Position numbers and translations under genes: made by a program. The notes under the pieces were generated by a model that ran no database searches, had not been told where the DNA came from, and saw nothing but the letters and a program-made list of their open reading frames with translations. DNA of 64,000 nucleotides. Source: an uncultured Acidobacteriaceae bacterium (GTDB lineage: Bacteria > Acidobacteriota > Terriglobia > Terriglobales > Acidobacteriaceae). Positions 8,592 to 63,329 of the stretch are shown here, in pieces (the stretch's first letter is position 1; every line of letters starts with the position of its first letter). Where the stretch lies: the NCBI GenBank assembly GCA_964236945.1, contig CAXSGC010000001.1, forward strand, positions 107,341 to 171,340. Direction: 5' to 3'.

Positions 8592-8612
8592 GGGGCCGAG
8601 AGGAACGACCTG

Positions 8613-9989
8613 ATGATTCGGCTGTTCAAGGTCTACTATCCGACCCGCACGATCGTTCTTCTTGGGTGCGAGGCTCTGATTGTGAGCGGGTCTTTCCTGC
8701 TTGCGACTGCGATGGTGCTCGGCCAGGATACGTTTCTGGTTTTGAACTATGAGTATGGTGCGCTCAAGATTCTTGGTCTGACGATTGTGACGCTGTTGTG
8801 CTCGTACTACTTCGATCTGTACGAGCCGCAGCGCATTTCAGAGCGGTGGGAGATCTATTTTCGGCTCCTTTTGGTGCTGGGATTTCTGTCGTTTCTCTTG
8901 TCCGCGATCACCTATGTGTTTCCCGCGGTGGACATTGCGCATTCCGTTCTGCTGCTGGGGCTCGCCTTTTTGACGGCAGCGCTGGTCGCGTGGAGGAGCG
9001 CGTACGAGTGGATTATCGGGCGCGAGGTGTTTCGCGAGCGGGTGTACATCCTGGGGGCGGGGGAGCGCGCCCAGACGATCCTGCGCATGTTGCGATCGCG
9101 TCCGGATGCGGGGATGGAAGTGGTGGGATGGGACGCGGCGCTGCCTCCCGGGGTGGATTCGCGGGCGGCGTTTGGCGATGTCCTGGATTCGTTTCGAGGG
9201 AGCAAACCGAAGGTCGATCGGGTGATTGTGGCGATGGAGGACCGGCGCGGGGCGCTTCCGGTTCGGGAGCTCCTGAAGCTGCGGTTTGACGGCGTGGCGA
9301 TCGAGGACGCGGGGATGTTGCTGGAGCGGCTCTCCGGAAAGTTGCAGCTGGACGGTCTGCGTCCGAGCAACTTCATTTATAGCGAGGGTTTTCGGGTGAA
9401 GCCGTCGCAGCAGATTGCGCGGCGTCTGGTTTCGACGATGGCGGCGGCGACTGGGCTTCTGCTGTTTCTGCCTTTTTTGCCCGTGGTGATGCTGATGGTG
9501 CGGATCTCGTCGCCGGGGCCGATCTTTTTCAAGCAGACGCGGGTGGGCCTGGGCGGGCGACCGTTCTCGGTGTACAAGTTTCGGACGATGCGGCAGGATG
9601 CCGAGGTGGCGGGCGCCAAATGGGCCACCAAGAACGACCCGCGCGTGACCCGGGTGGGGATGTTTATGCGCAAGACGCGCCTGGATGAGATTCCGCAGCT
9701 CTGGAATGTGCTGCGGGGCGATATGGGGTTTGTGGGTCCGCGACCGGAGCGTCCGGAGTTTGTTCCGTGGCTTTCCGAGCAGATTCCGTACTTCGACCTG
9801 CGGCACATGATCCGGCCGGGGCTGACGGGATGGGCGCAGGTTCGGTACGGCTACGGGTCGACCCTGGCCGAGGCGCGCGAGAAGCTGGAGTACGACCTGT
9901 ACTACATCAAGCACATGTCGCTGGGGCTGGACCTCTTGATCATGTTTGAGACGATCAAGACGATCCTGCGGCGCCGCGGGGCGCAGTGA
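8613..9989 (+). CDS. Priming sugar transferase (polyprenyl glycosylphosphotransferase, exosortase-locus type)
   Basis: N-terminal TM helices; C-terminal Bac_transf motifs KFRTM, DPRVTRVG, RLDEIPQLWNVLRGDM, GPRPERP, PGLTGWAQV, YDLYY. Confidence 0.95.
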   Translation: MIRLFKVYYPTRTIVLLGCEALIVSGSFLLATAMVLGQDTFLVLNYEYGALKILGLTIVTLLCSYYFDLYEPQRISERWEIYFRLLLVLGFLSFLLSAITYVFPAVDIAHSVLLLGLAFLTAALVAWRSAYEWIIGREVFRERVYILGAGERAQTILRMLRSRPDAGMEVVGWDAALPPGVDSRAAFGDVLDSFRGSKPKVDRVIVAMEDRRGALPVRELLKLRFDGVAIEDAGMLLERLSGKLQLDGLRPSNFIYSEGFRVKPSQQIARRLVSTMAAATGLLLFLPFLPVVMLMVRISSPGPIFFKQTRVGLGGRPFSVYKFRTMRQDAEVAGAKWATKNDPRVTRVGMFMRKTRLDEIPQLWNVLRGDMGFVGPRPERPEFVPWLSEQIPYFDLRHMIRPGLTGWAQVRYGYGSTLAEAREKLEYDLYYIKHMSLGLDLLIMFETIKTILRRRGAQ

Positions 9990-11164
9990 GCTGGGTCTTC
10001 TGGGCTTCGTTTGGGGTCGTCGCGTACACCTATGCGGGGTATCCGGCGGTGATGGCTGTGCTGGCGCGGGTGCGGCCGCGGCCCTGGCGACGGGTGGTTG
10101 AGCCTCGATCGGTCAGCGTGGTGATGGCGGTGCATAACGGAGCGCACCTGCTCGGGGGCCAGATCGAGCATCTTCTGTCGCTGCCGGAGAGCTATGTTCG
10201 CGAGGTGATCGTTGTCTCGGATGGGTCGACCGATGGAACGGCGGAGGTTCTGACCGAGGCGCGGGGATCGCGTCTGCGATCGATCCTCCTGCCGGAGCGC
10301 GTGGGCAAGGCTTCGGCCTTGAACGCGGGGATGGGGACGGTGACAAGCGAAATTGTCTTGTTTATCGACATCCGGCCGCGAGTGGCCGAGGGTGCGATCG
10401 AGCGATTGATGAGCAGTTTTGCCGATCCGACGGTCGGTTGTGTTGCCGGGGAGCTGGTGCTGGACAGCTCGGGTCTGGACGCGGCGGCCTCGGCCGTAAG
10501 TGGGGTTTACTGGAGGTACGAGCAGTGGATTCGGAACTGCGAGGCGGCTTTTGACTCGCCGGTCGGGGTGTATGGCGGGTTTTATGCGGCGCGCCGGGCT
10601 TTGCTTTCGCCGTTCCCGCCGGGGATTGTTCTCGACGATATGTTTCAGCCGCTGTCGATCGTTCGGCAGGGGTACCGGAGTGTGCTGGATCGCGAGGCGG
10701 TGGTGCTGGACGCGTGGCCGGGCAAGGTGGCGGGCGAGTTTCAGCGGAAGGTGCGGACGCTGGCCGGCAACTTTGAGCTGGTGTGGCTGGCGCCGTGGAC
10801 GCTGAGCTTTCAAAACCGCGTGCTGTTTCAGCTCGTTTCGCACAAGCTGTTGCGGCTGGTTGTGCCGTACTGCTTTGTGGGGATGTTGGTGAGCGCGAGC
10901 TGGCTGGGCCGGTTCTCGGGTGGATGGAGGCTGGTTGCGGGGCTGGAGTGGGCTGGGTTGCTGTCGGCTTTGCTGGCGCTGCGAGTTCGGCTGCCGTTGG
11001 TACAGCGGTATGCGGCGGCGGGGGGAGCGCTTCTGGTGCTGAACGCTGCGGCGGTTGCGGGATTATGGCGCTTTTTGTTTTCGGACGGGCCGCTTTGGAA
11101 GAGCTGGGCTGTGCAGGGAGCTCAGGGTGGGCGCCCAGGCATGGCTGAGATAGAGGCCGGATAG
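9986..11164 (+). CDS. Glycosyltransferase family 2 (processive-like, membrane-anchored)
   Basis: VSDGSTDGT, GKASALN, FIDIR, LDD and FQRKVR motifs with flanking TM helices. Confidence 0.9.
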   Translation: MSWVFWASFGVVAYTYAGYPAVMAVLARVRPRPWRRVVEPRSVSVVMAVHNGAHLLGGQIEHLLSLPESYVREVIVVSDGSTDGTAEVLTEARGSRLRSILLPERVGKASALNAGMGTVTSEIVLFIDIRPRVAEGAIERLMSSFADPTVGCVAGELVLDSSGLDAAASAVSGVYWRYEQWIRNCEAAFDSPVGVYGGFYAARRALLSPFPPGIVLDDMFQPLSIVRQGYRSVLDREAVVLDAWPGKVAGEFQRKVRTLAGNFELVWLAPWTLSFQNRVLFQLVSHKLLRLVVPYCFVGMLVSASWLGRFSGGWRLVAGLEWAGLLSALLALRVRLPLVQRYAAAGGALLVLNAAAVAGLWRFLFSDGPLWKSWAVQGAQGGRPGMAEIEAG

Positions 11165-45831: not shown

Positions 45832-46812
45832 ATGGTGGCTGTCGAAAAATCGCTGGGCACGAGCATCGGGGAGCTGGGCACGAGCATACTCGGTCGCATC
45901 GGCAACACGCCGCTGGTGCGTCTGGGCACGCTGACCGCCCACATGCCCGGAGTGCAGATTCTGGGCAAGGCCGAGTGGGCCAATCCGGGCGGATCGGTGA
46001 AGGATCGTGCGGCCTCGGCCATCGTTCTCGATGCGGAACGCCGGGGCGAGCTGCGGTTTGGCCGGCGTGCGGGCTCGGCAAGGGGACGGGCCCTGCTCGA
46101 CGCCACCAGCGGCAACACCGGCATCGCGTACGCCATGCTGGGCGCGGCGCTCGGCTTCCCGGTGACGCTGTGCATGCCGTCCAACGTTTCGCCGGAGCGG
46201 AAGAAGTACCTTGCCGCCTACGGTGCGGAGATCTTGTGGACCGATCCCGGGGCCGGCTCCGATGGCGCGATTCGCAAGGCGCGGGCGCTCGCCGAAGCTG
46301 AGCCCGAGCTCTACTTCTACGCCGACCAGTACAACAACGAGCAGAACTGGAAGGAGCACTACCGCGCCACGGGCGACGAGATCTGGCGGCAGACGGAGGG
46401 GCAGATCACGCACTTCCTCGCCGGCCTGGGCACCAGCGGAACGTTTATGGGAACCACGCGGCGGCTGCGCGAACTGAACCCGGCGATCCGTTGCATCTCC
46501 ATGCAGCCCGATTCGCCGTTCAACGGCCTTGAAGGCCTGAAGCATATGTCGACGGCGATCGTTCCCGGAATTTACGATCCCGCGCTGGCCGACGAGAACA
46601 TCGAGATGGAGACCGAGAAAGCTTACGTGATGGCGAAGCGGCTGGCGCATTCCGAGGGTCTGCTGGTCGGGGTCTCTGCCGCCGCGGCTGTGGCGGCTTC
46701 GCTCCAGGTCGCCGAACGCGAGGCCCGCGCCGGACGCGAGGCGGTGGTCGTCACGGTCCTCTGCGACTCCGCCGAGAAGTACATGAGTGAACGCTTCTGG
46801 ACGGAGGTGTAG
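45832..46812 (+). CDS. PLP-dependent cysteine synthase family protein (CysM-like)
   Basis: IGNTPLV, NPGGSVKDR (PLP lysine), ATSGNTG, DQYNN, GLGTSGT, KYMSERFW. Confidence 0.93.
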   Translation: MVAVEKSLGTSIGELGTSILGRIGNTPLVRLGTLTAHMPGVQILGKAEWANPGGSVKDRAASAIVLDAERRGELRFGRRAGSARGRALLDATSGNTGIAYAMLGAALGFPVTLCMPSNVSPERKKYLAAYGAEILWTDPGAGSDGAIRKARALAEAEPELYFYADQYNNEQNWKEHYRATGDEIWRQTEGQITHFLAGLGTSGTFMGTTRRLRELNPAIRCISMQPDSPFNGLEGLKHMSTAIVPGIYDPALADENIEMETEKAYVMAKRLAHSEGLLVGVSAAAAVAASLQVAEREARAGREAVVVTVLCDSAEKYMSERFWTEV

Positions 46813-46816
46813 GCCG

Positions 46817-47398
46817 ATGCTCTCCTTGAGCTACGCGGACTACCAGGCGATCCGCGCCCATGGCGAAGAGACCTATCCGCACGAGTGCTGCGGGATTCTT
46901 CTCGGAACGCACGCGGCGGGGAATGAGCCCACGGCGAGCGCCCCGGGTGCGGGCGGCAATGTGGTCCGACGCGTCCTGCGCGCGGGCAACACGCGCACCG
47001 ATTCGGCTCACAATCGTTACCACATCGCTCCCGAGGAGCTGGTGCGAGCGCAGCGAGAAGGTCGCCGCGACGGCCTCGACATCGTCGGCTTCTACCACTC
47101 GCATCCGGACCACCCCGCTCAGTGGTCGGCGACCGATTTTGCCGAGGCGCACTGGATCGGCTGCTCCTATGTCATCACGGCCGTTGAAAATGTCATCACG
47201 TCCGTTGAAAATGTCATCACGGCCGTTGAAAAAGGCCATGCGACGGTTACAAATTCGTTTTTACTGCAGGGCTCCGACGAAGAGAGCAAGGTCTTCGTGG
47301 ACGAGGCGCTCGAGATCGACGTCACCGGCGTGGACGACCGCGACGCGAAGCTCGCCGCCGAGCAGAGCATACAGGTTCTAGAGGGAGAAATCAGATGA
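46817..47398 (+). CDS. JAMM/MPN+ (M67, Mec-like) metalloprotease
   Basis: YPHECCG and FYHSHPDHPAQWSATD (E...HxH-x7-S-x2-D). Confidence 0.92.
   Translation: MLSLSYADYQAIRAHGEETYPHECCGILLGTHAAGNEPTASAPGAGGNVVRRVLRAGNTRTDSAHNRYHIAPEELVRAQREGRRDGLDIVGFYHSHPDHPAQWSATDFAEAHWIGCSYVITAVENVITSVENVITAVEKGHATVTNSFLLQGSDEESKVFVDEALEIDVTGVDDRDAKLAAEQSIQVLEGEIR
47171..47233. repeat. In-frame 21-bp triplication inside the JAMM gene
   Basis: GTCATCACG(G/T)CCGTTGAAAA(T/A) x3, encoding VITAVEN VITSVEN VITAVEK. Confidence 0.93.
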
Positions 47399-47682
47399 AG
47401 ATTCACATTCCGACACCGCTGCGGGCGTACGCCGGCGGCCAGGAAACCGTTGAAGTCGGCGCAATGTCGGTGCAAGGCGCTCTCGATGCGCTTACGATGA
47501 GCGCGCCCGAGTTGCGCAAGCACCTCTTCACCGAAGACAACAAGCTGCGGTCGTTTGTCAACGTCTACCTGAACGACGACGACATCCGGTATCTGCCCGC
47601 CAAAGAGGCGACAGGAACCGGCCCGGACGACGAACTGACGATCATTCCATCGATCGCGGGCGGCTCGCTGAATTATTTGTAA
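47395..47682 (+). CDS. MoaD/ThiS (CysO-like) ubiquitin-fold sulfur carrier with C-terminal extension
   Basis: IHIPTPLR, LRSFVNVYLNDDDIR, IIPSIAGG followed by SLNYL. Confidence 0.93.
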   Translation: MKIHIPTPLRAYAGGQETVEVGAMSVQGALDALTMSAPELRKHLFTEDNKLRSFVNVYLNDDDIRYLPAKEATGTGPDDELTIIPSIAGGSLNYL

Positions 47683-47728
47683 CCGTGAATGTTCGCGGTT
47701 TTTGACCTTGTAACATGCACCGTTACAA
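47677..47728. promoter_or_regulatory. Candidate operator: three TTGTAAC heptamers
   Basis: TTGTAAC at 47677 and 47708, inverted GTTACAA at 47722 (perfect 7-7-7 palindrome). Confidence 0.5.
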
Positions 47729-47793
47729 ACGTTTGGGTTCGCCCCCCGTGACACTTCCGTCCTGCTCGATCCGGGCGAAAAGGAGTACGCACC

Positions 47794-49029
<1,236 letters not shown>

Positions 49030-50429: not shown

Positions 50430-50903
50430 CTAGTACGGGATGCGGTTGGAGCTTGCCATCCAGGCGTCGAAGCCGGCTTGCGCTTCTTTGCCCAGCAGAG
50501 CCTTGCTGGGGATCAGCCGGTCTGCGATGGGCTTTCTGATCTCATCGTAGAGCAAGCGGTCGTCGAAGCCGGCGGCGGCCGCATCGAGAGCCGAGCTTCC
50601 GTAGAAGATCGCGTCCAGACGAGACCAGTAGATCGCGGCCAGGCACATCGGGCATGGCTCGCAGCTGGTGTAGATCGCGCATCCGCGCAGCTCAAAGCTC
50701 CGGAGCGCGGCGCAGGCGTTGCGGATGGCGGTCACCTCCGCGTGCGCGGTCGGATCGTTGCTCGCCGTCACCCGGTTCGCTCCGGTCGCGATCACGTCGT
50801 CGCCGCGCACGATGACGGCGCCGAACGGACCACCTCGACCCGCGCGCACATTTTCAACTGCGAGCGCGATGGCCTGTTGCATGAAAGCCGGATTCTCGTG
50901 CAT
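50430..50903 (-). CDS. Zn-dependent nucleoside/guanine deaminase (CDA superfamily, GuaD-like)
   Basis: GGPFGA, DPTAHAE, CEPCPMC; divergent from the purine catabolism operon. Confidence 0.9.
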   Translation of the reverse strand: MHENPAFMQQAIALAVENVRAGRGGPFGAVIVRGDDVIATGANRVTASNDPTAHAEVTAIRNACAALRSFELRGCAIYTSCEPCPMCLAAIYWSRLDAIFYGSSALDAAAAGFDDRLLYDEIRKPIADRLIPSKALLGKEAQAGFDAWMASSNRIPY

Positions 50904-50948: not shown

Positions 50949-50976
50949 GTGCGGGATAATGTCGATTATGGCACAG
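50949..50976. other. Candidate dif (XerCD) site overlapping the allantoinase start
   Basis: GTGCGGGATAA-TGTCGA-TTATGGCACAG has the 11-6-11 layout with ATAA/TTATG inner arms, and sits in the GC-skew inversion zone. The outer right arm deviates from the usual TTATGTTAA. Confidence 0.45.
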
Positions 50977-52314
50977 GCTTTCTTGTCAGACAGGATCGTC
51001 ACCGAGGACGGGATCCGCGACGGCGCTCTCCTGGTCGAGGACGGACGGATCGTCAGTCTCTGCGCGGCGTCCGAGGTACCCGCCGACGCAGACCGCATCG
51101 ATTGCGGACGGAGCGCGATCCTGCCCGGTCTGGTCGACACGCACGTTCACCTGAACGAGCCGGGGCGCACCGAATGGGAGGGCTTCTGGACCGGCACGCG
51201 CGCGGCCGCCGCGGGAGGATATACGACGCTGGTCGACATGCCGCTGAACTGCCTGCCCGAGACCACGACGGTCGAGGCGCTCGACGCCAAGCGCGCCGCC
51301 GCGCATGGGCAAACCTTTGTGGACTGGGCGGCGTGGGGCGGCGCGGTGACCGGCAACCAGGGGCATCTGCTGCCGCTCGCAGGGGCCGGCGTTCGCGGAT
51401 ACAAGTGCTTTCTGCTCTACCCCGGATGCGACGGTTTCACGATGATCAGCCTGAGCGATCTGGAAGAGGCGCTTCCGCAGATCAGGCGTTCGGGACTCCC
51501 GCTGCTGGTGCATGCCGAGCTCGCCGGACCCATCGAGCGCGCGACGGAAGCACTGGCGCAGAGCGACTGGAGGAGCTACGCAACGTATCTCGCCTCGCGC
51601 CCGGACACGGCCGAGATCGACGCCATCCGGTGCCTGATCGATCTCTGCCGCACCCATCGATTTCACCTGCACATCGTCCACCTTTCGACCGCGCTGGCGC
51701 TGCCGCTGCTGCGCGAGGCGCGGGCCGAGGGCTTGGCCATTACGATTGAGACCTGCCCGCACTACCTCCACTTCGCGGCCGAAGAGATCCGCGACGGAGC
51801 GACGCTGCTGAAGTGCGCGCCTCCGCTGCGTGGAAGAGCGAACCGCGAAGCTCTGTGGGACGCGCTCCGGGACGGAACCATCGACCTGATCGCGACCGAC
51901 CACTCGCCCTGTCCGCCAGAGATGAAAGAGCTGGCGAGCGGACGTTTCGACCAGGCCTGGGGAGGCATCGCCAGCCTCTCGCTCGCGCTCCCGGTCGTCC
52001 ATACCGAGGCTTGTCGGCGCGGTTTCAAGCTGTCCGACATCGCTCGCTGGATGAGCCAGGCGCCGGCACAGCTGGCGGGGATCGGCCACGTCGCGGGCGC
52101 GCTCGGGCCGGGGCGCGAGGCGAACTTCGTCGTCTTCGATCCCGAAGCTGAGTTTGTCGTCACTCCGGAGCACCTGCACTTTCGCCATCCGATCTCGCCT
52201 TACGTCGGAGAGACGCTCCTGGGCGTTGTCACGGCGACGTACCTGCGCGGAGATCCGGTGTGGGACGGCGCGACGTTTGAGGCTCAGCCGCGCGGCCGCG
52301 AGGTCACGGTATGA
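50968..52314 (+). CDS. allB: Allantoinase
   Basis: LPGLVDTHVHLNEPGRTEWEGF, GGYTT, DMPLN, VHAE, HIVH, ETCPHYL, KCAPP, ATDHSP, WGGIASL. Confidence 0.95.
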   Translation: MAQAFLSDRIVTEDGIRDGALLVEDGRIVSLCAASEVPADADRIDCGRSAILPGLVDTHVHLNEPGRTEWEGFWTGTRAAAAGGYTTLVDMPLNCLPETTTVEALDAKRAAAHGQTFVDWAAWGGAVTGNQGHLLPLAGAGVRGYKCFLLYPGCDGFTMISLSDLEEALPQIRRSGLPLLVHAELAGPIERATEALAQSDWRSYATYLASRPDTAEIDAIRCLIDLCRTHRFHLHIVHLSTALALPLLREARAEGLAITIETCPHYLHFAAEEIRDGATLLKCAPPLRGRANREALWDALRDGTIDLIATDHSPCPPEMKELASGRFDQAWGGIASLSLALPVVHTEACRRGFKLSDIARWMSQAPAQLAGIGHVAGALGPGREANFVVFDPEAEFVVTPEHLHFRHPISPYVGETLLGVVTATYLRGDPVWDGATFEAQPRGREVTV

Positions 52315-52843
52315 TCGCCGCAGAGATGACGACCTCCGTTCTCGATCTGTGGAATCAACTCGACATGGCCGAGGCCGCACAGGAGATCCTGCCTGCTGCG
52401 GCTCCGAAATCTGGGCGCGCGGTGTCGCGGAGCGGCGGCCTCTGGAGGACCACGCAGATCTGCTCGCGGCCAGTCGTGCAGCCTTCGCCGGCCTCACTTC
52501 GCGAGATTGGACGGCGGCTTTTGAGAGCCACCCGCGCATCGGCGAGCAGCACGCGGCGGGCGAGGCGACCGGCCGATCACTCGCGTGGAGCCGGGCTGAG
52601 CAGAGCTCCGCCGACGCTGACAACGAACATGTCGCGCACCTGCTGCGGGAAGGCAACCGGGCGTACGAGGCGCGCTTCGGCCAGATCTTCCTGGTCTGCG
52701 CCGCCGGCAGGAGCAGGTCGGAGATCCTCGCGATCCTGAACGCCCGTATGCTCAACGACCCCGAAACCGAGCAGACGGTCGCCCGAGCCGAGCAGGAGCG
52801 CATCACGGCTTTGCGGCTCGAACGCTGGCTCGGGGGAGCGTAG
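52311..52843 (+). pseudogene. uraD: OHCU decarboxylase with a 1-bp deletion frameshift near 52392-52393 (real lesion or sequencing error)
   Basis: N-terminus MTTSVLDLWNQLDMAEAAQEILP is in the 52311 frame; the conserved CCGS, HPRIG, SRAEQ, GNRAYEARFGQIFLVCAAG and EQERITALRL part is in another frame. Junction ATC CTG CC|TGC TGC GGC. Confidence 0.85.
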
Positions 52844-52846
52844 CGG

Positions 52847-53185
52847 ATGGGCATCTCGACCCACATCCTCGACACCTCCCTAGGCCGTCCGGCCGCGGCG
52901 GTCCCAGTCTCGCTCGCGCGTCTTGAGCGCGAACATTGGACCACGATCGCGCATCGAGAGACCGACCGCGACGGCCGCTGCAAAGACCTCCTCTCAGTCG
53001 ACACCTCGATCGCATCCGGCATCTACCGCCTGCGCTTCGAGACGTCCGTCTACTTCGGGCGCCTCGGCTCGCGGAGCCTCTATCCTTACGTCGAGATCGT
53101 CTTCGAGGTCCCCGACCCGGCCGCCCACTTTCACATCCCGCTGCTCCTGAGCGCGAACAGCTACACCACGTATCGAGGAAGCTAG
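52847..53185 (+). CDS. uraH: 5-hydroxyisourate hydrolase (transthyretin-like)
   Basis: ISTHILD, TDRDGR, YP, HFHIPLLLS and the C-terminal YRGS signature. Confidence 0.96.
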   Translation: MGISTHILDTSLGRPAAAVPVSLARLEREHWTTIAHRETDRDGRCKDLLSVDTSIASGIYRLRFETSVYFGRLGSRSLYPYVEIVFEVPDPAAHFHIPLLLSANSYTTYRGS

Positions 53186-53191
53186 ATCGGC

Positions 53192-54040
53192 ATGCATCGG
53201 CTCACCGCAAATCGTTACGGAAAATCGCGCGTTCGTCTGCTCAAAGTCACACGTAACCTCGACGAGCACAATCTCTCCGAGTGGACCGTGCAGGTGCTCC
53301 TCCGCGGCGACTTCGAAGCGGCACACACCGCAGGGGACAACAGCAAGATCCTCGCAACCGACACCATGAAGAACACGGTCTACTCGGTCGCTCGATCGAG
53401 CTTGGCCGACTCGATGGAGGCCTACGCAAAGGAACTCATCGGCTTCATCCTCGACCGCAATCCGCAGGTCGGATCGGCCGAAGTCACGGTCGAAAGCGCG
53501 CTCTGGAAGCGCCTCACGGTCGACGGCAGGCCGCATCCGTCGAGCTTCATGCGCGGCAGCGCCGAGCGGCAGACCACGGTGGTCGGGCAGACGCAGAGCG
53601 GCCCTTTTCAGATCACCTCCGGCCTCGACGACCTCACGCTGATGAAGACCGCCGACTCTGGATTTTCAGGCTTTATTCGGGATTCCTTGACCACTCTGCC
53701 GGAGACGGACGACCGTCTTCTCGGCACTTCCATGCGCGCACGCTGGCCGTATCTGCGCGAGGATCTCGACTTCAACACCGTTCGCGATCAGGTGCGCGAG
53801 AGCCTGCTCGCGACGTTTGCCAACCACAGGAGTCGATCCGTGCAGGAGACGCTCTTTGCGATGGCGGCGGCAGCGCTCGATCGCACGCCGGAGATCGATG
53901 AGATCGAGATTGCGATGCCCAACAAGCACGCTCTGCTGGTCGATCTCGCGCGCTTCGGGCAGACCAATCCGAACCAGATCTTTGTGCCTACGGACGAGCC
54001 GCATGGATACATCGAGGCGCGTGTCCAGCGTGCGCGCTAA
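53192..54040 (+). CDS. pucL: Urate oxidase (uricase)
   Basis: YGKSRVRL, ATDTMKN, KTADSGF, TLPETDDR, SVQETL, MPNKH, PHGYIEA. Confidence 0.95.
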   Translation: MHRLTANRYGKSRVRLLKVTRNLDEHNLSEWTVQVLLRGDFEAAHTAGDNSKILATDTMKNTVYSVARSSLADSMEAYAKELIGFILDRNPQVGSAEVTVESALWKRLTVDGRPHPSSFMRGSAERQTTVVGQTQSGPFQITSGLDDLTLMKTADSGFSGFIRDSLTTLPETDDRLLGTSMRARWPYLREDLDFNTVRDQVRESLLATFANHRSRSVQETLFAMAAAALDRTPEIDEIEIAMPNKHALLVDLARFGQTNPNQIFVPTDEPHGYIEARVQRAR

Positions 54041-54053
54041 GGAGCTCGGGCCG

Positions 54054-55334
54054 ATGAGCGACACCGCGCGCGCCGTGGACATCCTCCATCGCTGCCGCGA
54101 GATCAGCCGATGCACGGAGGTCCCCGGCACCATCACGCGCGGATATCTGTCCGAGCCCATGCACGCGGTGCATCGGCTCTTACGCGAGTGGATGAGCTCG
54201 GCCGGCATGGAGGTTCGCCTGGACGCCGCGGGCAACCTGCGGGGTCTGCGCCGCACGTCCACCCCTGGGTCGCCGCGGCTTCTGCTCGGATCGCACCTCG
54301 ATACCGTTCCCGATGCCGGAGCGTTCGACGGCGTCTTCGGGGTCGTGCTCGCCGTCGCCGCGGTCGAAGCGCTTGGAGACGTGTCGCTGCCGTACGAGAT
54401 CGAAGTCATCGGCTTCTCGGAGGAGGAGGGCGTCTGCTTCGGCAAGCCGTTTCTCGGCAGCCTGGCCGTCGTCGGCCAGATCGACCCGGCAACGCTGGCG
54501 CGGTCGGATCGGCATGGCGTCACCGTCGCCGAGCGACTTCGCCGCTTCGGCCTCAACCCGGACGACCTCTCCGACGCCCGGCTCGCCGCGAACACCGCCG
54601 CCTACATCGAGGTGCACATCGAACAGGGTCCGGTCCTCGACACCGCAGGCGAGTCGATCGCGGTTGTGACGTCGATCGTCGGCCAGTTGCGCCTGCTGTT
54701 TCACTTCCGCGGACAAGCCAACCACGCCGGCACGACGCCCATGCACCTGCGCCGCGACCCCGTCGTCGCCGCCGCGGAGTGGATCGTCGCGATCGAACGT
54801 TTGGCGAGCGACGTCTCCGGCCTCGTCGCCACGACCGGCCACCTCCGCGCCCACCCCGGAGCCGTCAACGTCATCGCGGGCGCGGTCGAGGCGACCCTCG
54901 ACGTTCGGCATGAGATGGATGTAACGCGAGAGAACTTCGCCCGATCCGCGATCGACACCGCCCGCGAGATCGCCGCGCGCCGTGGCCTTACGGTGGACGC
55001 CAGACTTGAGACCGAACAGAGCTCCGTGCCGATGCATCCCGGTCTCGTCCGCCAGCTCTGCTCCGCGGCTGAAGAAGCGCTTGGATCTCCTGTCCGGACG
55101 ATGCCGAGCGGTGCCGGCCACGACGCCATGATCCTGGCCCGGAGCGTTCCCTCGGCGATGCTCTTCGTTCGCAGCCCCGGCGGCATCAGCCATCATCCGG
55201 AAGAAGCTGTGCTCCATGACGACGCCGCCGCCGCGCTCCGCACCCTCACAGCGTTCGTCCATAGGTTCGGCCAAACCGGCGCACTCGGCTCGCCTGATAT
55301 CTTGGGCGGGAATGGTCCTGATGCCCATGCATAA
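54054..55334 (+). CDS. allC: Allantoate amidohydrolase (M20 family)
   Basis: DAAGN, GSHLDTVPDAGAFDG, FSEEEG, FLGS, HIEQGPVL, HAGTTPM, SGAGHDAM, GGISHHPEE. Confidence 0.88.
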   Translation: MSDTARAVDILHRCREISRCTEVPGTITRGYLSEPMHAVHRLLREWMSSAGMEVRLDAAGNLRGLRRTSTPGSPRLLLGSHLDTVPDAGAFDGVFGVVLAVAAVEALGDVSLPYEIEVIGFSEEEGVCFGKPFLGSLAVVGQIDPATLARSDRHGVTVAERLRRFGLNPDDLSDARLAANTAAYIEVHIEQGPVLDTAGESIAVVTSIVGQLRLLFHFRGQANHAGTTPMHLRRDPVVAAAEWIVAIERLASDVSGLVATTGHLRAHPGAVNVIAGAVEATLDVRHEMDVTRENFARSAIDTAREIAARRGLTVDARLETEQSSVPMHPGLVRQLCSAAEEALGSPVRTMPSGAGHDAMILARSVPSAMLFVRSPGGISHHPEEAVLHDDAAAALRTLTAFVHRFGQTGALGSPDILGGNGPDAHA

Positions 55335-56085
55335 CACCGGCAGCACGCGCAGCCACAGCAGCCGCGATCACCTCCTGCAGACGCCGGACACGTTTGTGCG
55401 GACGCCGCTTCCATGCCTCGATCGCGCGGTCGCGATCGTCCACATTGCACCGGCCGGGGGTGCCGCCTTTGCCCAGTACACGGTCGAGTTCGAAGCGGCG
55501 GGCCTGATGCGAAGCTCCGGCTTCGAGCGCTTTGTTTACGTTCTCGAAGGCGAGCTTACGCTCCACCTCGCGGAGCAGCAGCACCTTCTGCGCAAAGGCA
55601 GCTTCGCCTATCTGCCGGCCACGCAGACGCATCGGTTCAGCGCTCTCGGCCGCGCTCGCGCCGTCGTCTTCGAGCTTCCGCCTCGGACTTCGGAGACGGA
55701 ACCAGGGGCCGCCGGCGCAGTCGAATCCGAACCCTCGTTCCTGATCGGCCACGAGCCGGAAATCCCTCCCTCCGCGCTTCTGGACGACCCGAGCATCCAG
55801 GTGCGATCGCTCCTTCCCGAAAACATTGGCGTCCGCTTCGCCGTCAACACGATGACCTACGACCCTGGAGCTTCGCTCAGCATGGTCGAGGTCCACGTCA
55901 TGGAGCACGGCCTCCTGATGCTCGAAGGCGGCGGCATCTATCGTCTCGGCAGCAGATGGTCTCCCGTCCGGGCAGGCGATTTCATCTGGATGGCGCCGTT
56001 CTGTCCGCAGTGGTTCGGGGCCCTGGGAAAGACGCCCGCGAAGTATCTCATCTACAAGGATTGGAACCGGCATCCGATCGGATAG
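55321..56085 (+). CDS. allE: (S)-ureidoglycine aminohydrolase (bicupin)
   Basis: EVHVMEHGLLMLEG, GIYRLG, GDFIWMAPFCPQW, YLIYKDWNR. Confidence 0.93.
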   Translation: MPMHNTGSTRSHSSRDHLLQTPDTFVRTPLPCLDRAVAIVHIAPAGGAAFAQYTVEFEAAGLMRSSGFERFVYVLEGELTLHLAEQQHLLRKGSFAYLPATQTHRFSALGRARAVVFELPPRTSETEPGAAGAVESEPSFLIGHEPEIPPSALLDDPSIQVRSLLPENIGVRFAVNTMTYDPGASLSMVEVHVMEHGLLMLEGGGIYRLGSRWSPVRAGDFIWMAPFCPQWFGALGKTPAKYLIYKDWNRHPIG

Positions 56086-56117
56086 AAGCGCCGGACGACC
56101 TAAATACAAGGACGCAC

Positions 56118-57425
56118 ATGCTGGACACCACTGAACTTCCGGATGGCTCGCAGGTCGGCTTCCCCGACGCCGACCCGATACAAATTGATGCAGCGAAGCT
56201 CAGCGCCGAACTCGCCGAACTCGCCAACTTCAGCGACGCTCCAGCCGCGCCTGCAGGTACCGCCGTCACGCGCATCGTCTTCTCCGAGCAGGATCGTCGG
56301 GCGCGCGCATGGCTGAAACATCTCGCCTCGGACGCCGGTCTCGATACACGCGAGGACGCGGTCGGCAATACCTTCTTCCGCTGGTCCGGAACCGATCCGT
56401 ATCTGCCCGCGGTCGCCACCGGATCGCACATCGACGCCATCCCGCACGCGGGCATGTACGACGGAACCGTCGGCGTGCTCGGCGGTCTGGAGGCCATCCG
56501 GGCGCTGCGGCGAAGCGGCTTCCGGCCGCGGCGCTCGATCGATCTGGTCCTCTTCACCTCCGAGGAGCCTACCCGCTTCGGCATCGGCTGTCTGGGAAGC
56601 CGTCTGCTCGCGGGTGTCCTCACCCCTGAGCGCGCAGCCACCCTGCGCGACCCGGACGGCGCTACCCTGGATCAGCTTCGCGAAGCCGCCGGCTTCCACG
56701 GACCAATCTCCGCCGTACCACTTTCTCAAGGTCACTACAGCGCTTGGCTCGAACTGCACATCGAACAGGGGCCGCTGCTCGAACGCGAAGGCCTTCCGCT
56801 CGGCATCGTCACCGGCATCGCCGCGCCCGCCGGATATCGCTTCGAGATCATGGGTCTCGGCGGCCACGCCGGCGCCCTCCTGATGCCCGACCGGAGGGAC
56901 GCGCTCTGCGCCGCCGCCGAGGTGATCCTCTCGGTCGAGCGACGGACGCTCGAAACCGGCGCCATCGACACCGTCGCGACCGTCGGCACCTGCCAGGTCC
57001 ACCCCGGCGCGGTCAACAGCGTTCCGAGCCGCGTCGGGCTTGAACTCGATCTGCGCGACACGGATCCAGGACGCCGCGATGAAGTCATCGCCGCCATCCG
57101 CGGCGACATCGCCGAGATCGCATCGAAGCGCGGCGTCCACATCACCGAGCAATTCGTCAACGCCGACCAGCCCGCCGCCTGCTCGACCGAGCTCATCGAT
57201 CTGCTCGAAAGCTCCGCGGACGCGATCGGAGCTCCGTCTCGCCGGATGGTCAGCCGCGCGTACCACGACTCGCTCTTTCTGGCCCGCATCGCCCCCATCG
57301 GCATGCTCTTTATCCCCTGCCGGGGGGGCATCAGCCATCGTCCCGAAGAGTACGCCAGCCCTGAAGACATCGCGCTCGGCACCCGCGTTCTGGCGCTCGC
57401 GCTTGCTAAGCTAGCATCGGTGTAG
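56118..57425 (+). CDS. M20 amidohydrolase, probably ureidoglycolate amidohydrolase (plant UAH-like)
   Basis: GSHIDAIP, FTSEEPTRFGIGCLGSR, HIEQGP and SRAYHDSLF closely resemble plant UAH motifs as recalled; follows allE in the operon. Confidence 0.8.
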   Translation: MLDTTELPDGSQVGFPDADPIQIDAAKLSAELAELANFSDAPAAPAGTAVTRIVFSEQDRRARAWLKHLASDAGLDTREDAVGNTFFRWSGTDPYLPAVATGSHIDAIPHAGMYDGTVGVLGGLEAIRALRRSGFRPRRSIDLVLFTSEEPTRFGIGCLGSRLLAGVLTPERAATLRDPDGATLDQLREAAGFHGPISAVPLSQGHYSAWLELHIEQGPLLEREGLPLGIVTGIAAPAGYRFEIMGLGGHAGALLMPDRRDALCAAAEVILSVERRTLETGAIDTVATVGTCQVHPGAVNSVPSRVGLELDLRDTDPGRRDEVIAAIRGDIAEIASKRGVHITEQFVNADQPAACSTELIDLLESSADAIGAPSRRMVSRAYHDSLFLARIAPIGMLFIPCRGGISHRPEEYASPEDIALGTRVLALALAKLASV

Positions 57426-57445: not shown

Positions 57446-58885
57446 ATGGCCCTGGAGTCAATCAATCCCGCCAATGGAAAGCTCTTGCGCCGCTTCGATC
57501 CCATCGATGCGACGACCCTCCGCGAGAAAGTGGCGCGCGCGCATGTCGCCTTTCGCGCTTACGGGCACGTGCCGATCGAACATCGCGCGCTCTGCATGCG
57601 CAAGCTGGCGTCGATCCTGGACAGCGAAGCCGAAGATCTCGCGCGCACCATTACGATCGAGATGGGCAAACCCATTGCGGCGGCGCGGCAGGAGATCCTG
57701 AAATGTGCCGGCACGTGTCTCTTCTACGCGGAAGAGGCCGCGCGCATGTTGGCGCCCGAGTCGATCGCCACCGAGGCCGCTCATAGCTACGTCCGATGGG
57801 ATCCGCTCGGCGTCTTGCTGGCGGTGATGCCGTGGAACTTTCCCTTCTGGCAGGTCTTCCGCTGCCTCGTTCCGGCACTGATGGCCGGCAACGTCGTTCT
57901 TCTGAAACACGCTTCCAACGTGCCGCAGTGCGCGCTCGCGATCGAAAGTCTGGTCCGCCGATCGGGCTTTCCCCCTGGAACATTTCAGGCGCTGCTCATC
58001 GATGTCCAAGCCGTCGAATCCGTGCTCGCCGACGATCGCGTTGTCGCGGTCACCGTCACCGGAAGCGAGGCCGCCGGCCGAGCGATCGGCGCGCAGGCGG
58101 GTTGGCTGATCAAGAAGTCGGTGATGGAGCTCGGTGGCAGCGACCCCTTCATCGTGATGAGCTCCGCCGACCTCGATCGTGCCTCCGAGATGGCGGTTCG
58201 ATCGCGCCTGATCAACAGCGGGCAATCCTGCATCGCGGCCAAACGCTTTCTGCTCGCAGCCGAAATCTACGATCGCTTCACCGAACGCTTTGTCGCCGGC
58301 ATGCGCGAGATGGTCGTCGGCGATCCGTTGAACAGCAACACGGACGTGGGCCCGCTCGCGACAAAACGTCTGCTCGACGACCTCGAATTGCAGGTCGGCG
58401 CTGCCGTCAAAGCCGGTGCACGCGTGCTGACGGGCGGCCACCGCATCCGCGGTCTTACAACGGACGGGCCCGAGGACGCCAAGGGAGAGGGAAACTTCTT
58501 CCAGCCCACCGTTCTCGAGGGCGTTCCGCGCACCTCGCCCGTCTACCGCGAAGAGCTGTTTGGGCCGGTGGCCATGCTCTTTCGCGTCCGGGATCTCGAC
58601 GAAGCGATCGCGATCGCGAACGACACCCCGTTCGGCCTGGGCGCCTCGGTCTGGACGCGCGATCCCGCCGAACAGCAGCGTCTGATTGCGGAGCTCGAAT
58701 GCGGCATGGTGTTTCTGAACACGATCGTCGTGAGCGACCCGCGCCTGCCGTTCGGCGGGGTCAAACACTCCGGTTTCGGCCGCGAACTCTCGGCCTTCGG
58801 CATGCGTGAGTTCATGAACGCAAAAACAGTCGTGATCGGCGCGCCGCCATCTTCGCCTTCACCTTCAAGAAGCTCCGCCCGGTAA
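57446..58885 (+). CDS. NAD(P)-dependent aldehyde dehydrogenase (succinate-semialdehyde dehydrogenase, Sad-like)
   Basis: MPWNFPFWQ, LKHASN, TGS, ELGGSDP, NSGQSCIAAKR, ELFGP, FGGVKHSGFGREL. Confidence 0.93.
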   Translation: MALESINPANGKLLRRFDPIDATTLREKVARAHVAFRAYGHVPIEHRALCMRKLASILDSEAEDLARTITIEMGKPIAAARQEILKCAGTCLFYAEEAARMLAPESIATEAAHSYVRWDPLGVLLAVMPWNFPFWQVFRCLVPALMAGNVVLLKHASNVPQCALAIESLVRRSGFPPGTFQALLIDVQAVESVLADDRVVAVTVTGSEAAGRAIGAQAGWLIKKSVMELGGSDPFIVMSSADLDRASEMAVRSRLINSGQSCIAAKRFLLAAEIYDRFTERFVAGMREMVVGDPLNSNTDVGPLATKRLLDDLELQVGAAVKAGARVLTGGHRIRGLTTDGPEDAKGEGNFFQPTVLEGVPRTSPVYREELFGPVAMLFRVRDLDEAIAIANDTPFGLGASVWTRDPAEQQRLIAELECGMVFLNTIVVSDPRLPFGGVKHSGFGRELSAFGMREFMNAKTVVIGAPPSSPSPSRSSAR

Positions 58886-58912: not shown

Positions 58913-61846
58913 TCAGAAGCTGAACGAAGCCTGCAACTGCAGTCGCTGGACCGCGGCACTCGATGTGTACGGCGGACCCGAGAGCTGCAGGGACTGGCCG
59001 AAGTTGCGCGACGTCAGAGTGCCGACCGGAACCGTCAGGTTCTCCTTGTTGAAGACGTTCTGCAACTGCGCCCCAAGCGTCAGGTTGTAGCGCTTGCCGG
59101 TGCTGGTTCCGCCTCCGCCCATACCGACCCCGGGACCTCCACGACCGCCACCGCCGCCGCCACGTCCACCCGGTCCACCGGGACCTCCGGGGCCGCCCTG
59201 CGCAGGTCCGCCCTGCCCGCTCCCTCGGTCTGCTCCTTCCGAGTTCCTCCGCCCAAAGCCAAAGGTCTTCGTCGCCCGCAGATTCATGGTGAACAGCGCT
59301 GGTCCCGTGCAGTAGTTGATCGGAATCGGCGCATAGCTCGTCCCAAACGCCGGGATTGAGAAGGTGTTTGCGTCCGTGCATCTGGCGGAGGTCTGTCCCG
59401 CGAGAAACGTGGGCCGATCGTTGACGATGCTGTCCCCGTTCGTATCCTCGCCGGAGGTAATGTTGTACGGCTGGCCGGACTGCGCCAGAACAAACGGACT
59501 GAGGGAGATAAAGTGCGGCAGAGTGACGTTGCCACCGAGAAACAGCCGACTGCGCACGTCAAAGGCGGCACGTCCGTAGTCCGCGCCGATGTTGCCCGGG
59601 ATCGAAGGAAAGTAGTTCGGTCCAGAGGTGTCCGCGTGCGCGAAGTTCAGGCCGTAGTAGCCGAAAAGCGTTATACGTCGAGTCCGGATATTGAAGTTCG
59701 TATTGAGCTGGTTCTGCCGGAAGACGCCCTCGGACTGGTACTGGTCGGTGACCGGAAGACCTGTGTTCAACGCAGAGTAGGGGCGCCCGATCGCCGCCGT
59801 GTTCTGGCTGAGAAACTGATGGACACCACGCGCGTTCAGGTAGTTCACGCTGACGGTTGCCCCACGAAACAGCTGCTGGTCGATGCCAAATGCGGTCTGC
59901 ATCGTGTACGGACTTCGAAGGTGCGGCGCGATCGTGTACGTGGTGTTGCCCACCGCCGAAACGGCCGCAAGACAAGCTGCAACATCACTCGGGGCGCATC
60001 CGGGCGCGCTGTTTCCGACGTTCGAGAGAGTGTACTGCGTCTGGTTCACACCATTCTCGCGAAAGGTCGTGAGGACGTTGCCCAGGTTGAACCGGTCATA
60101 AAAGATGCCGAAGCCGCCGCGGACCACTGTCCTCGGCGAGCCCTTCGCCGATCCCAAACCATACGCAAACGAGACACGCGGAGCGAAGTCGTGGTGATCG
60201 CTGATCTGGTTCTGCGTCTCATAGCGGAAGCCATAGCTGAACGTCAGATTCGGCCGTGGCTTCCAATCGCTCTCCGCATAGATACCGAGGTCCGTCAGGC
60301 GTGCCCGGACCGTTGGAACATTCACGCGTGTGAAGCTGAAGTTCTGGACATTGTTGTTCTGGTAAGCGTCCAGGCTCGCGTAGCTGAAGATGCCGTTGGT
60401 GCCGGCGTTTGTATTGGTCGCCTCGCGCGTCGTCCGCAGGCGGCCGCCGAATCGAATGAAGTTCTTCGCCAGCTGCACGGAGGTGTAGTTCTGGACTTCG
60501 ATGTGCTCCTGATGATCCGAGTTCGCGCCTCCACTCGACCCGCCGGAGATGAACGAGCTTTGCACGTTGATCGTAGGTGCGTAGCTCTGCGCGCTCTGGG
60601 TCGACCGGTTGCGCTGAAACTCGAAGCGCGTCTCGTTGATGATGCGCGAGCTCACGATCTGCGAGTCGCTGATCTGGATCTCCGCTTCGTTGGAATCGGT
60701 GTTGTACGCAGTCGACGGCAGATTGAAGCTGCCCAGACCATTGTTGGTGCTGCTGTTCTGCGTGTACTGAAATCGCGCCGTAAGCGTGTTTGTGTTGCTT
60801 AGTGCAAAGTCCAGCCGCGGGCTGAGTTCTGTACGCGTCTGCGGAAACGTCGTAGCATTCTGCAGCTGCTGGATGACGCAGGTTGCGGACGCCGATCCGG
60901 GCGGGCAGAGCGTTGCCGAGCCGTTGCCTGTAGAGTCGCTGGCCGGCGTCAGAACCGTCCCGTTGAAGATCGCGTTGTCCTGAATGTTGCGATGCGACCC
61001 GGACATGGTGAAGGACGACTTCGATGTGATCGGACCGGTGATGCTGCCAAACATGAAGATCGTGTGGTACGGCGGCTGGGCGATGGCGACCTGCCCGGGA
61101 GACAGGTACTGATTCAGGACCGGATTGCCGGTGTTGAAGCTGGAATCGTTTCCATTGATCTGGTAGCTTCCGTGAAATTTGTCGGTTCCCGGCTTGGTAA
61201 ATACCTCCACACGACCGAATCCCAGACGATCGTACTGCGCCGAAAACGGGTTCTGATTCACGCGGATCTCGCGGATCGAAGACTTCGGCGGAAGTTGCCC
61301 ACCCGTAAATCCGTCCACATAGATCTGCCCGCCATTAGGTCCGGCTGCCGGGCCCGCAAGTGCCGTCAGCTCCGACGAAAGCTCGTCCGGGTCGTCCGAC
61401 AGAGCGTCCAGATCCTTGCCCTTGATCACCGTCGAGCTCGCGTTGTTGTCCTGATCGACGCTGAGCTGCGTCCCCTGCGCCGTGACCTGAATCTCCTGGT
61501 TTGTGGTCGAAATCGCCATCTTTGTATCCAGAGTCACAGCCTGCCCCGCGCCTATCCGCAAACCCTGTTTTACATAGCTCGCGAAACCTTTCATCGTGAC
61601 GGTGAGCGAGTAGGTCCCGGGGGGCACTGCATTGAAGAGATAGGTGCCATCGGAGCCGGACATCACCGTCAGCGCCCGTCCCGCCGCCGGCGTCAGAGTC
61701 GCCGTCGCTCCAGGAATCAGCGCATCGTCCGGGTCCGTCACCGTTCCGCGCACGGTCGCGCCGGCTCCTCCCTGCGCGAACCCGGGACGCGACACAAGCA
61801 GAGACAAGGACATCAACCACAAAAGTAGACCTGCGCGAAGAGACAT
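58913..61846 (-). CDS. TonB-dependent-receptor-like outer-membrane protein with N-terminal carboxypeptidase-regulatory-like domain
   Basis: SD AGGAG before ATG 61846; signal peptide, plug-like region (GRVEVFTKPG), beta-barrel strands and C-terminal QASFSF. Confidence 0.88.
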   Translation of the reverse strand: MSLRAGLLLWLMSLSLLVSRPGFAQGGAGATVRGTVTDPDDALIPGATATLTPAAGRALTVMSGSDGTYLFNAVPPGTYSLTVTMKGFASYVKQGLRIGAGQAVTLDTKMAISTTNQEIQVTAQGTQLSVDQDNNASSTVIKGKDLDALSDDPDELSSELTALAGPAAGPNGGQIYVDGFTGGQLPPKSSIREIRVNQNPFSAQYDRLGFGRVEVFTKPGTDKFHGSYQINGNDSSFNTGNPVLNQYLSPGQVAIAQPPYHTIFMFGSITGPITSKSSFTMSGSHRNIQDNAIFNGTVLTPASDSTGNGSATLCPPGSASATCVIQQLQNATTFPQTRTELSPRLDFALSNTNTLTARFQYTQNSSTNNGLGSFNLPSTAYNTDSNEAEIQISDSQIVSSRIINETRFEFQRNRSTQSAQSYAPTINVQSSFISGGSSGGANSDHQEHIEVQNYTSVQLAKNFIRFGGRLRTTREATNTNAGTNGIFSYASLDAYQNNNVQNFSFTRVNVPTVRARLTDLGIYAESDWKPRPNLTFSYGFRYETQNQISDHHDFAPRVSFAYGLGSAKGSPRTVVRGGFGIFYDRFNLGNVLTTFRENGVNQTQYTLSNVGNSAPGCAPSDVAACLAAVSAVGNTTYTIAPHLRSPYTMQTAFGIDQQLFRGATVSVNYLNARGVHQFLSQNTAAIGRPYSALNTGLPVTDQYQSEGVFRQNQLNTNFNIRTRRITLFGYYGLNFAHADTSGPNYFPSIPGNIGADYGRAAFDVRSRLFLGGNVTLPHFISLSPFVLAQSGQPYNITSGEDTNGDSIVNDRPTFLAGQTSARCTDANTFSIPAFGTSYAPIPINYCTGPALFTMNLRATKTFGFGRRNSEGADRGSGQGGPAQGGPGGPGGPGGRGGGGGGRGGPGVGMGGGGTSTGKRYNLTLGAQLQNVFNKENLTVPVGTLTSRNFGQSLQLSGPPYTSSAAVQRLQLQASFSF

Positions 61847-61979
61847 CAGAACTCCTACCCTCATATATCGGCTGTTCATTCAGAAACTTTAGGCCTGCAA
61901 CAAAGAAGTCAGCACCGATGTCATCGGAGGTTCGTCACCGCTGATTGCATCCCCCAGCCTGGCTACGCGGAATGCCAGA

Positions 61980-63329
61980 TCACTGCGTGCCGCCCTCGGG
62001 AGCTCCGCCGCCGACACTCCACGGCGAGAGAACCATGGCCTCGGACCCGCTCGGCGCTGCCGCCAGAATCGGACCTACCCCCGAGAGCACGGTGATCGCC
62101 GTCATCGGGTCGGCCGGCGACGCCTGCGAGGCGACAATCATCACCGCATCGCCCGTGTGCAGACTTGAAACCGGCAGAGCCGGCAGGCGGGCAACCATCT
62201 GCGAGAGATCTCCTCCCGCCGATCTTCCACCTCCAGGCCGGCCGCCCCCGGGCCGCGCACCGCCGGATCCGCCCGGCTCGCCTCCCTGAACACCGCCTGC
62301 ACCGGACCCTGCGGAAGCTCCGCCGGATGCTGGAGCAGAAGCGCCCGTAGCCCCGGCTCCGGAACGTCCAGCCCCTCCAACAGTTCCGCCTACACGAGCT
62401 CCACCACCCTGCCTTCCGTCCTGACTACCATTTGGGGACGCATCCGGGTGTTGCCGCGCCGCAAACCCCGCAGCCTGCTCCGGCGAAAGCATATGAATCG
62501 CCGTGTTGGGCGTAATCTTGACCGCGACGTTCCGCTTGGTCGTCAGATCCTTAAGCGAGATTGCCGAGCCCGTCGCGTCCACGCTGAGGAGCGTTCCCGA
62601 AACGTTGCGAAACGATCCACTGACGATCTCCTCTGCCTGCTCCTCCGCCTGCTGCGGGCCGGCATCGGACCGCCTTCCACGGACGCGAATCTGATCGCCC
62701 ACATGGATCTCGGCCAGGGTCCCAGGCTTGGCGTCTTCAAAGCGCACCGAATCTCCCGCGTACCGGCGAAAGATCGTCTTGTCAGTGGTCAAAACCTCTG
62801 TTTTGCGCGTCCCGGATGTCACCGTAATCGTTCCCGTCGCCGGGTCGACCGCGCTCACCAGACCTCCGCTCCCGCGCCTCTGCCAATCCGCCGCCTCCCC
62901 CTGTCGCTTCTGATCGATGTCCGACGAGCGCATCAGAATCACGCGCACGGCAGAAAATCCGGCGCCATTCGCGCTTCCCGTCGCCAGCACACGATCGCCT
63001 ACCGCGATATCCGTGAAGCTGCCCGGCTGCGCCGACTTCAGGTCCTTGCTGCCCGGCGCCAGTTGAAGCACACGCGCCGCGGCCGGCACGTCTACCGTGA
63101 CACCCTGGCCGGCGTCGGTCGTCAGCGTCAACGTCGATCCCTCGATGCGCTTCACCGTTCCGATCTGACGCGCCAGGGGAGCCGCTGCCGTCGCACCCGC
63201 GGGAGCGCTTTGAGCCCGCAAACCGGGAACTCCGCTCAGGAGCGCTGCCGACACCGCAAGGCTGACGAGAAGTGGCCGCCACGAGCGAGAAAGCCCAAAA
63301 AGCATAGTAAAGATCCTTCGCTGAAACAT
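61980..63329 (-). CDS. Secreted protein with repeated small beta domains (DUF5666-like)
   Basis: Signal peptide; three similar units (IGTVKRI...IAVGDRVLA, GLVSAVD...IHVGDQIRV, GTLLSVD...LHTGDAVMI) and a Gly-rich linker. Confidence 0.75.
   Translation of the reverse strand: MFQRRIFTMLFGLSRSWRPLLVSLAVSAALLSGVPGLRAQSAPAGATAAAPLARQIGTVKRIEGSTLTLTTDAGQGVTVDVPAAARVLQLAPGSKDLKSAQPGSFTDIAVGDRVLATGSANGAGFSAVRVILMRSSDIDQKRQGEAADWQRRGSGGLVSAVDPATGTITVTSGTRKTEVLTTDKTIFRRYAGDSVRFEDAKPGTLAEIHVGDQIRVRGRRSDAGPQQAEEQAEEIVSGSFRNVSGTLLSVDATGSAISLKDLTTKRNVAVKITPNTAIHMLSPEQAAGFAARQHPDASPNGSQDGRQGGGARVGGTVGGAGRSGAGATGASAPASGGASAGSGAGGVQGGEPGGSGGARPGGGRPGGGRSAGGDLSQMVARLPALPVSSLHTGDAVMIVASQASPADPMTAITVLSGVGPILAAAPSGSEAMVLSPWSVGGGAPEGGTQ

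Follow-up and report, generated by a model that had tools for sequence, protein, structure and literature searches.

In Escherichia coli, (S)-ureidoglycolate is processed by AllA, a ureidoglycolate lyase that releases urea, or by AllD, a dehydrogenase that yields oxalurate, and in Bacillus subtilis the puc pathway relies on PucF as the allantoate amidohydrolase (AAH) and on PucG as a ureidoglycine-glyoxylate aminotransferase. (S)-Ureidoglycolate amidohydrolase (UAH) was identified and crystallised in Arabidopsis, according to the passages of PMC3793230 and PMC13751858 that cite Werner 2010 and Shin 2014. UAH has been described as “found in plants and bacteria” (PMC6320678), and the plant AAH and UAH are among the genes listed as acquired from bacteria (Yue et al. 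2012, PMC3493653). No description of UAH in Acidobacteria was found in the literature that we searched. Here, we analyzed a stretch of 64,000 nucleotides (the window) on contig CAXSGC010000001.1 of an uncultured Acidobacteriaceae bacterium (assembly GCA_964236945.1; genome of 3.9 Mb, 96% complete), in which predicted genes for AAH, (S)-ureidoglycine aminohydrolase (UGlyAH), and UAH lie one after the other (54054 to 57425) at the end of a set of genes for urate degradation.

A predicted urate-to-glyoxylate operon

The seven genes concerned are as follows.

50959 or 50968 to 52314, + strand: allB, allantoinase AllB (TIGR03178, 505 bits, cut-off 358; ATG at 50959 or 50968)
52349 to 52843, + strand: uraD, OHCU decarboxylase (TIGR03180, 151 bits, cut-off 139; probable GTG start)
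52847 to 53185, + strand: uraH, 5-hydroxyisourate hydrolase UraH (TIGR02962, 134 bits, cut-off 87)
53192 to 54040, + strand: uricase, cofactor-independent urate oxidase (TIGR03383, 311 bits, cut-off 168)
54054 to 55334, + strand: probable AAH, M20 family, 426 amino acids (aa) (NF006775 equivalog, 508 bits, cut-off 479)
55327 to 56085, + strand: predicted UGlyAH, bicupin (TIGR03214, 258 bits, cut-off 200)
56118 to 57425, + strand: predicted UAH, M20 family, 435 aa (PDB 4PXE, 459 bits)

These seven open reading frames (ORFs) of the + strand, between 50959 and 57425, are separated by intergenic gaps of −8 to 34 nucleotides (nt), and no terminator-like site was found on that strand over the same interval. 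We read them as a tight operon, presumably co-transcribed. The start of uraD at 52349 is the sole in-frame start past the allB stop. The four upstream assignments, already proposed by a first-pass annotation made from the sequence alone, were borne out by the TIGRFAM matches given above, and the two M20 amidohydrolases that it had placed on either side of UGlyAH are, like UGlyAH itself, intact at the listed positions. Given that the gene families of the operon were matched with E-values of 1e-39 to 1e-152, chance matches are of no concern.

Taken together, the operon very probably serves purine/urate catabolism, taking urate to glyoxylate without urea, with substrates and metal as we infer them. 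Uricase, UraH, and UraD would convert urate into (S)-allantoin, whose ring AllB would open to give allantoate. AAH would then hydrolyse one ureido group of allantoate, yielding (S)-ureidoglycine, CO2, and NH3; UGlyAH would remove the amino group as NH3, leaving (S)-ureidoglycolate; and UAH would hydrolyse the remaining ureido group to glyoxylate, CO2, and two NH3. The metal of UAH in plants is Mn2+. By this scheme, all four ring nitrogens of urate would end as ammonia and no urea would be formed.

The second M20 protein and the plant UAH clade

The step that would distinguish this route is assigned to the second M20 protein (56118 to 57425). When compared with all PDB chains, it had as its best match Arabidopsis UAH (4PXE; 458.9 bits, E-value of 1.5e-136, 54% identity over 412 aligned residues), followed by a Geobacillus L-carbamoylase (280 bits), with E. 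coli AllC at 171 bits. Three motifs that the first-pass annotation had linked to the Arabidopsis enzyme, GSHIDAIP (residues 102 to 109), FTSEEPTRFGI (146 to 156), and SRAYHDSLF (379 to 387), are present and identical in Arabidopsis UAH. The metal and catalytic set is complete (H104, D115, E149/E150, H214, and H383) and aligns with that of the plant protein; we take the ligand roles of these residues from what is generally known of the M20 family.

Tyr423 of UAH acts by restricting the pocket. In a 2026 review (PMC13751858, citing Shin 2014), UAH is told from AAH by this Tyr, which stands in place of a Gly in AAH, and by a QXR motif that belongs to AAH. The acidobacterial protein has Y382, within SRAYHDSLF, at the Tyr423 position and lacks the QXR motif, with P-A-G (IAAPAG) at a site that reads P-A-S in Arabidopsis UAH. 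Since our alignment of 133 rows shows a Tyr at that column in some few proteins that do not belong to the UAH clade, it would be necessary, but not sufficient, for UAH.

Two trees, one of 132 rows and a more careful one of 69 rows (LG+C20 PMSF), both placed the protein in a clade of 27 to 28 rows with support of 100 SH-aLRT and 100 UFBoot, together with other acidobacterial proteins, Arabidopsis UAH, and the UAHs of plants, green algae, and red algae. The L-carbamoylases, AllC, the AAH of the same window, and some 100 other family representatives all fell outside. Of the 1.84 billion cluster representatives scanned, only a couple of dozen scored distinctly higher than a plateau at about 40% identity. 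The named ones were the UAHs of Salix and Populus and proteins of Spirogloea, Chara, Closterium, Dunaliella, and a red alga, and the remainder were metagenomic bacterial proteins labeled by the Joint Genome Institute (JGI) either as UAH or as N-carbamoyl-L-amino-acid hydrolase. One representative (P0140, 45% identity) lies inside the UAH clade with a gene neighbourhood devoid of ureide genes, and therefore the edges of the clade may include other specificities. By score, clade, and specificity residues, we assign the product of 56118 to 57425 as an orthologue of plant UAH and a predicted UAH (EC 3.5.1.116). Clade membership and the Tyr423 and QXR positions together also support the plant-like, urea-free sequence of AAH, UGlyAH, and UAH that had been proposed at the outset.

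The competing view of this protein is that it is an N-carbamoyl-L-amino-acid hydrolase or beta-ureidopropionase acting on some other carbamoyl compound, with ureidoglycolate decaying spontaneously or through an unrecognised lyase. Database names lend it some weight: about half of the JGI labels read N-carbamoyl-L-amino-acid hydrolase, NCBI says only “M20 family metallo-hydrolase,” and among the NCBIfam models the protein passes just the generic hydantoinase/carbamoylase model TIGR01879. However, NCBIfam has no UAH model, which accounts for both the low scores and the noncommittal RefSeq name, and many acidobacterial homologues are in fact already named ureidoglycolate amidohydrolase by JGI. 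The fully supported branch (100/100) parts the protein from every carbamoylase representative and groups it with the characterised Arabidopsis enzyme; the clustering with carbamoylases or beta-ureidopropionases that would have spoken for this view was not seen. The UAH sequence blocks are identical, Tyr423 included, and the gene keeps a fixed place after UGlyAH in several lineages. We thus regard the carbamoylase assignment as very improbable.

A cluster representative of the UAH clade (P0136) was also located at 8001 to 9299 of an ENA contig (ptg001112l, locus L102) that looks eukaryotic, with eIF2B-like, NCA2, and histone deacetylase genes, and a cupin gene adjoins it at 9412 to 10026. UAH and possible UGlyAH genes may therefore be neighbours in a eukaryote too.

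UGlyAH, the first M20 protein, and other possible routes

The longest ORF for UGlyAH runs from 55216 to 56085, but the real start is most likely the ATG at 55327 (252 aa), since the alignment with PDB 1SFN covers this ORF only from its residue 39 on. With this start, UGlyAH shares 8 nt with the end of the AAH gene, stop codon included. The protein scored 202 bits against Deinococcus DR1152 (1SFN), 173 bits against the Arabidopsis enzyme (4E2Q), and 86 bits against E. coli YlbA/AllE (1RC6). Its metal site (E188, H190, H194, and Q228) is intact, a Glu/His/His/Gln set presumed to hold Mn as in the structure of Arabidopsis UGlyAH; in the alignment with 4E2Q, EVHVMEHG is paired with EVHYNQHG, and CPQWF with VPQWY. 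The bicupin is accordingly a predicted UGlyAH (EC 3.5.3.26) of the plant/Deinococcus type.

The first M20 protein (54054 to 55334) scored 507.9 bits against the “allantoate amidohydrolase” equivalog NF006775 (cut-off 479). It has the metal ligands H81, D92, E124/E125, H188, and H356, a QXR motif (Q211-L-R213), and Gly355 at the position of the UAH Tyr. Only 3 of the 133 aligned rows have QXR at the motif column, namely, E. coli AllC, the protein studied here, and the AAH of a planctomycete-like operon (L093), with which it shares a lineage separate from that of E. coli AllC. In almost every one of the 80 loci retrieved with the UAH protein, the gene directly precedes UGlyAH, the two overlapping in the window, and this order supports the AAH role because the substrate of UGlyAH, ureidoglycine, is supplied only by AAH. 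In a 4.9-kb JGI metagenome contig (L104), a single ORF of 659 aa (1070 to 3049, + strand) even combines both domains, 53% (AAH) and 55% (UGlyAH) identical to the window proteins, and is followed by a UAH orthologue (3079 to 4347); the joined ORF may be a genuine Rosetta-stone fusion, or else the result of a frameshift error in a single assembly. On the grounds of motif, gene context, and the NCBIfam model, rather than of close kinship to any characterised AAH, 54054 to 55334 most likely encodes AAH (EC 3.5.3.9).

We also searched the whole genome for enzymes of the alternative routes. The first-pass annotation had noted that AllA, AllD, and urease are missing from the window, and the same holds for the genome: we found no urease alpha subunit, no AllA-type ureidoglycolate lyase (PF04115), no Ldh_2/AllD protein (PF02615), and no allophanate hydrolase over the cut-off. 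Thus, UAH is the only recognisable ureidoglycolate enzyme in this genome, and, with neither urease nor allophanate hydrolase, the host would have no means of using any urea set free. A release of nitrogen as ammonia only would suit such a host, which lacks urease and urea amidolyase.

Several observations weigh against the proposed route. The AAH candidate fails the AllC-specific model TIGR03176 (257 bits, cut-off 597.75), matches the Geobacillus L-carbamoylase 3N5F (244 bits) better by score than it does AllC (196 bits), and does not stand as the sister of E. coli AllC; in a tree built without plant AAH or PucF, it shares with AllC a group of 13 rows (97/82) that also holds 3N5F. The QXR motif itself is not absolute, reading Q-T-Q in the L104 fusion. 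At the genome level, the search for allantoicase was empty, but the control genomes were silent too, so that its absence is not demonstrated, and with 96% completeness an absent gene could sit in a gap. Neither glyoxylate carboligase nor malate synthase, which could have accounted for the fate of the carbon, was found in the genome. Finally, the literature searched on the enzyme, almost wholly plant or algal, contained no assay of a bacterial UAH. To that extent the route is, as had been remarked, little characterised in bacteria, although UAH is known in bacteria and annotated by JGI.

The scores and tree position of the first M20 protein could be taken to mean that the M20 roles are different or swapped, this protein being carbamoylase-like and allantoate being hydrolysed by the UAH-clade enzyme or by a third hydantoinase/carbamoylase-family paralogue, which the genome does carry (contig C12, 18955 to 20127, − strand, locus L083). 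The specificity positions speak otherwise: QXR and Gly in the first M20 protein as in AllC, P-A-G and Tyr in UAH, and V-E-R and Leu in the C12 paralogue, a combination that fits neither AAH nor UAH. The match to NF006775 above its cut-off, the fusion of the AAH lineage with UGlyAH, and the need of UGlyAH for ureidoglycine, of which AAH is the sole source, likewise favour AAH for the first M20 protein, and we give an exchange of roles very little credence.

Distribution, neighbouring genes, and described systems

All 80 loci belonged to Acidobacteriaceae or close relatives, including Tunturiibacter strains as well as the cultured Terriglobus roseus DSM 18391 and Granulicella rosea DSM 18704, and wherever the contig was long enough the order allB, uraD, uraH, uox, AAH, UGlyAH, UAH was kept. 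The module of AAH, UGlyAH, and UAH was found in at least three further metagenomic lineages: the planctomycete-like contig L093, where the urate genes are differently arranged; L103, with the order XDH, allB, uraD, uox, uraH, AAH, cupin, UAH; and L104. Of 121 sampled genomes of the family, 15 had UAH, 5 had urease, and 2 had both. Mutual exclusion of urease and UAH was considered and rejected, as 2 of the 15 UAH carriers have urease, which is simply rare. The low frequency of UAH in the family and the lack of any dedicated transporter or regulator within the cluster might suggest that the cluster, though conserved, is a remnant, largely redundant or inactive, in bacteria that do not use urate or allantoin, but with seven intact ORFs, complete catalytic residues, and 50 to 70% identity between genera in a preserved gene order, and therefore purifying selection, this is hardly credible.

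A separate matter is whether this bacterial module is the donor type of the Archaeplastida ureide end-pathway, possibly as one block, which we consider rather unlikely. UGlyAH and UAH both resemble their plant counterparts far more than they do the E. coli enzymes, and in the UAH clade green plants, green algae, and red algae are joined by no more than a handful of lineages of bacteria. Our trees do not settle the branching order of bacteria and eukaryotes within this clade, and they neither exclude nor support a donor role.

Two genes flank the operon closely.

50430 to 50903, − strand: guanine deaminase, CDA-fold, B. subtilis GuaD type (PDB 1WKQ/1TIY; Pfam dCMP_cyt_deam_1; ATG start)
57446 to 58885, + strand: aldehyde dehydrogenase (ALDH) resembling succinate-semialdehyde dehydrogenase (SSADH), 20 nt downstream of UAH (PDB 4IT9, 492 bits)

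The guanine deaminase gene is transcribed divergently from allB; its product matched 1WKQ/1TIY over its full length (179 bits, E-value of 6e-52) and would supply xanthine towards urate. The ALDH was considered as the missing glyoxylate step, given that the genome lacks both glyoxylate carboligase and malate synthase, but this idea was rejected for want of support: the protein is closely related to the cyanobacterial SSADH 4IT9 and falls below every NCBIfam cut-off. Its gene stands behind UAH in most Acidobacteriaceae loci but does not accompany the module in L093 or L103, and its synteny in the family is no more telling than that of the unrelated homoserine dehydrogenase and MoeZ genes upstream. 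The ALDH is best read as a succinate-semialdehyde dehydrogenase and is probably a syntenic neighbour, not a pathway step.

Just downstream, on the opposite strand to the operon, the window carries a TonB-dependent-receptor-like protein of 988 aa with CarboxypepD_reg and an outer-membrane beta-barrel (58913 to 61879, −) and a DUF5666 protein of 449 aa (61980 to 63329, −); we saw no evidence tying either to ureide uptake. Upstream, a cluster at 45832 to 49029 (+) comprises a CysM-like cysteine synthase, a JAMM/Prok-JAB protease, a ThiS/CysO-like carrier (95 aa, 47395 to 47682), and a MoeZ-type adenylyltransferase with a rhodanese domain, and looks like mycobacterial-type sulfur-carrier (CysO) cysteine biosynthesis. 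Over approximately the first 34 kb of the window, the + strand shows an unusually strong GC skew (+0.13 to +0.36, taken over 2-kb intervals). This region (1 to 34000) contains an exopolysaccharide locus (Wzz, sugar transferase, Wzy, and GT4 genes) and a phosphoketolase. Past ca. 46 kb the skew is about zero or negative, and its cumulative peak near 46 to 50 kb may mark a replication terminus or a switch in strand bias.

What the locus adds is a complete, predicted urea-free route from urate to glyoxylate in a bacterial group that is mostly without urease, and this would explain how soil and peat oligotrophs could gain all four nitrogens of the purine ring. Among the cultured carriers, T. roseus DSM 18391 and G. 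rosea DSM 18704 make an assay of a bacterial UAH possible. The missing NCBIfam model is an annotation gap, seen also in the split of the JGI names. The known chemistry of the pathway is unchanged; as a bacterial representative of a pathway type already known, the operon is well supported, but it is not a new kind of system, and its novelty is modest.

With the E. coli all regulon, the operon would share the substrate (S)-ureidoglycolate and the upstream chemistry of AAH and UGlyAH, but the ureido group would go to NH3 and CO2, being neither released as urea nor oxidised. The AAH has the M20 fold family, metal ligands, and Gly of E. coli AllC (PDB 1Z2L and 4PXD), with QLR for the QRR of AllC, although the identity is only 34 to 35%. 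UGlyAH is a bicupin with the same E/H/H/Q metal site as Arabidopsis UGlyAH (4E2Q), Deinococcus DR1152 (1SFN), and E. coli AllE/YlbA (1RC6), nearer to the plant/Deinococcus type (173 to 202 bits) than to AllE (86 bits). The B. subtilis puc pathway is likewise a urate-to-glyoxylate cluster with AAH and a GuaD-type CDA-fold guanine deaminase; in the acidobacterial cluster, however, there is no aminotransferase, and UGlyAH and UAH are found instead. The closest counterpart of the second M20 protein is Arabidopsis UAH (At5g43600, EC 3.5.1.116; PDB 4PXB, 4PXC, and 4PXE), with which it has in common 54% identity, the three identical blocks, all bimetal ligands, the Tyr423 equivalent, the lack of QXR, and the clade. 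In contrast to the plant enzyme, the bacterial protein lacks the N-terminal targeting extension of ca. 50 residues, and its gene lies in an operon beside those for AAH and UGlyAH.

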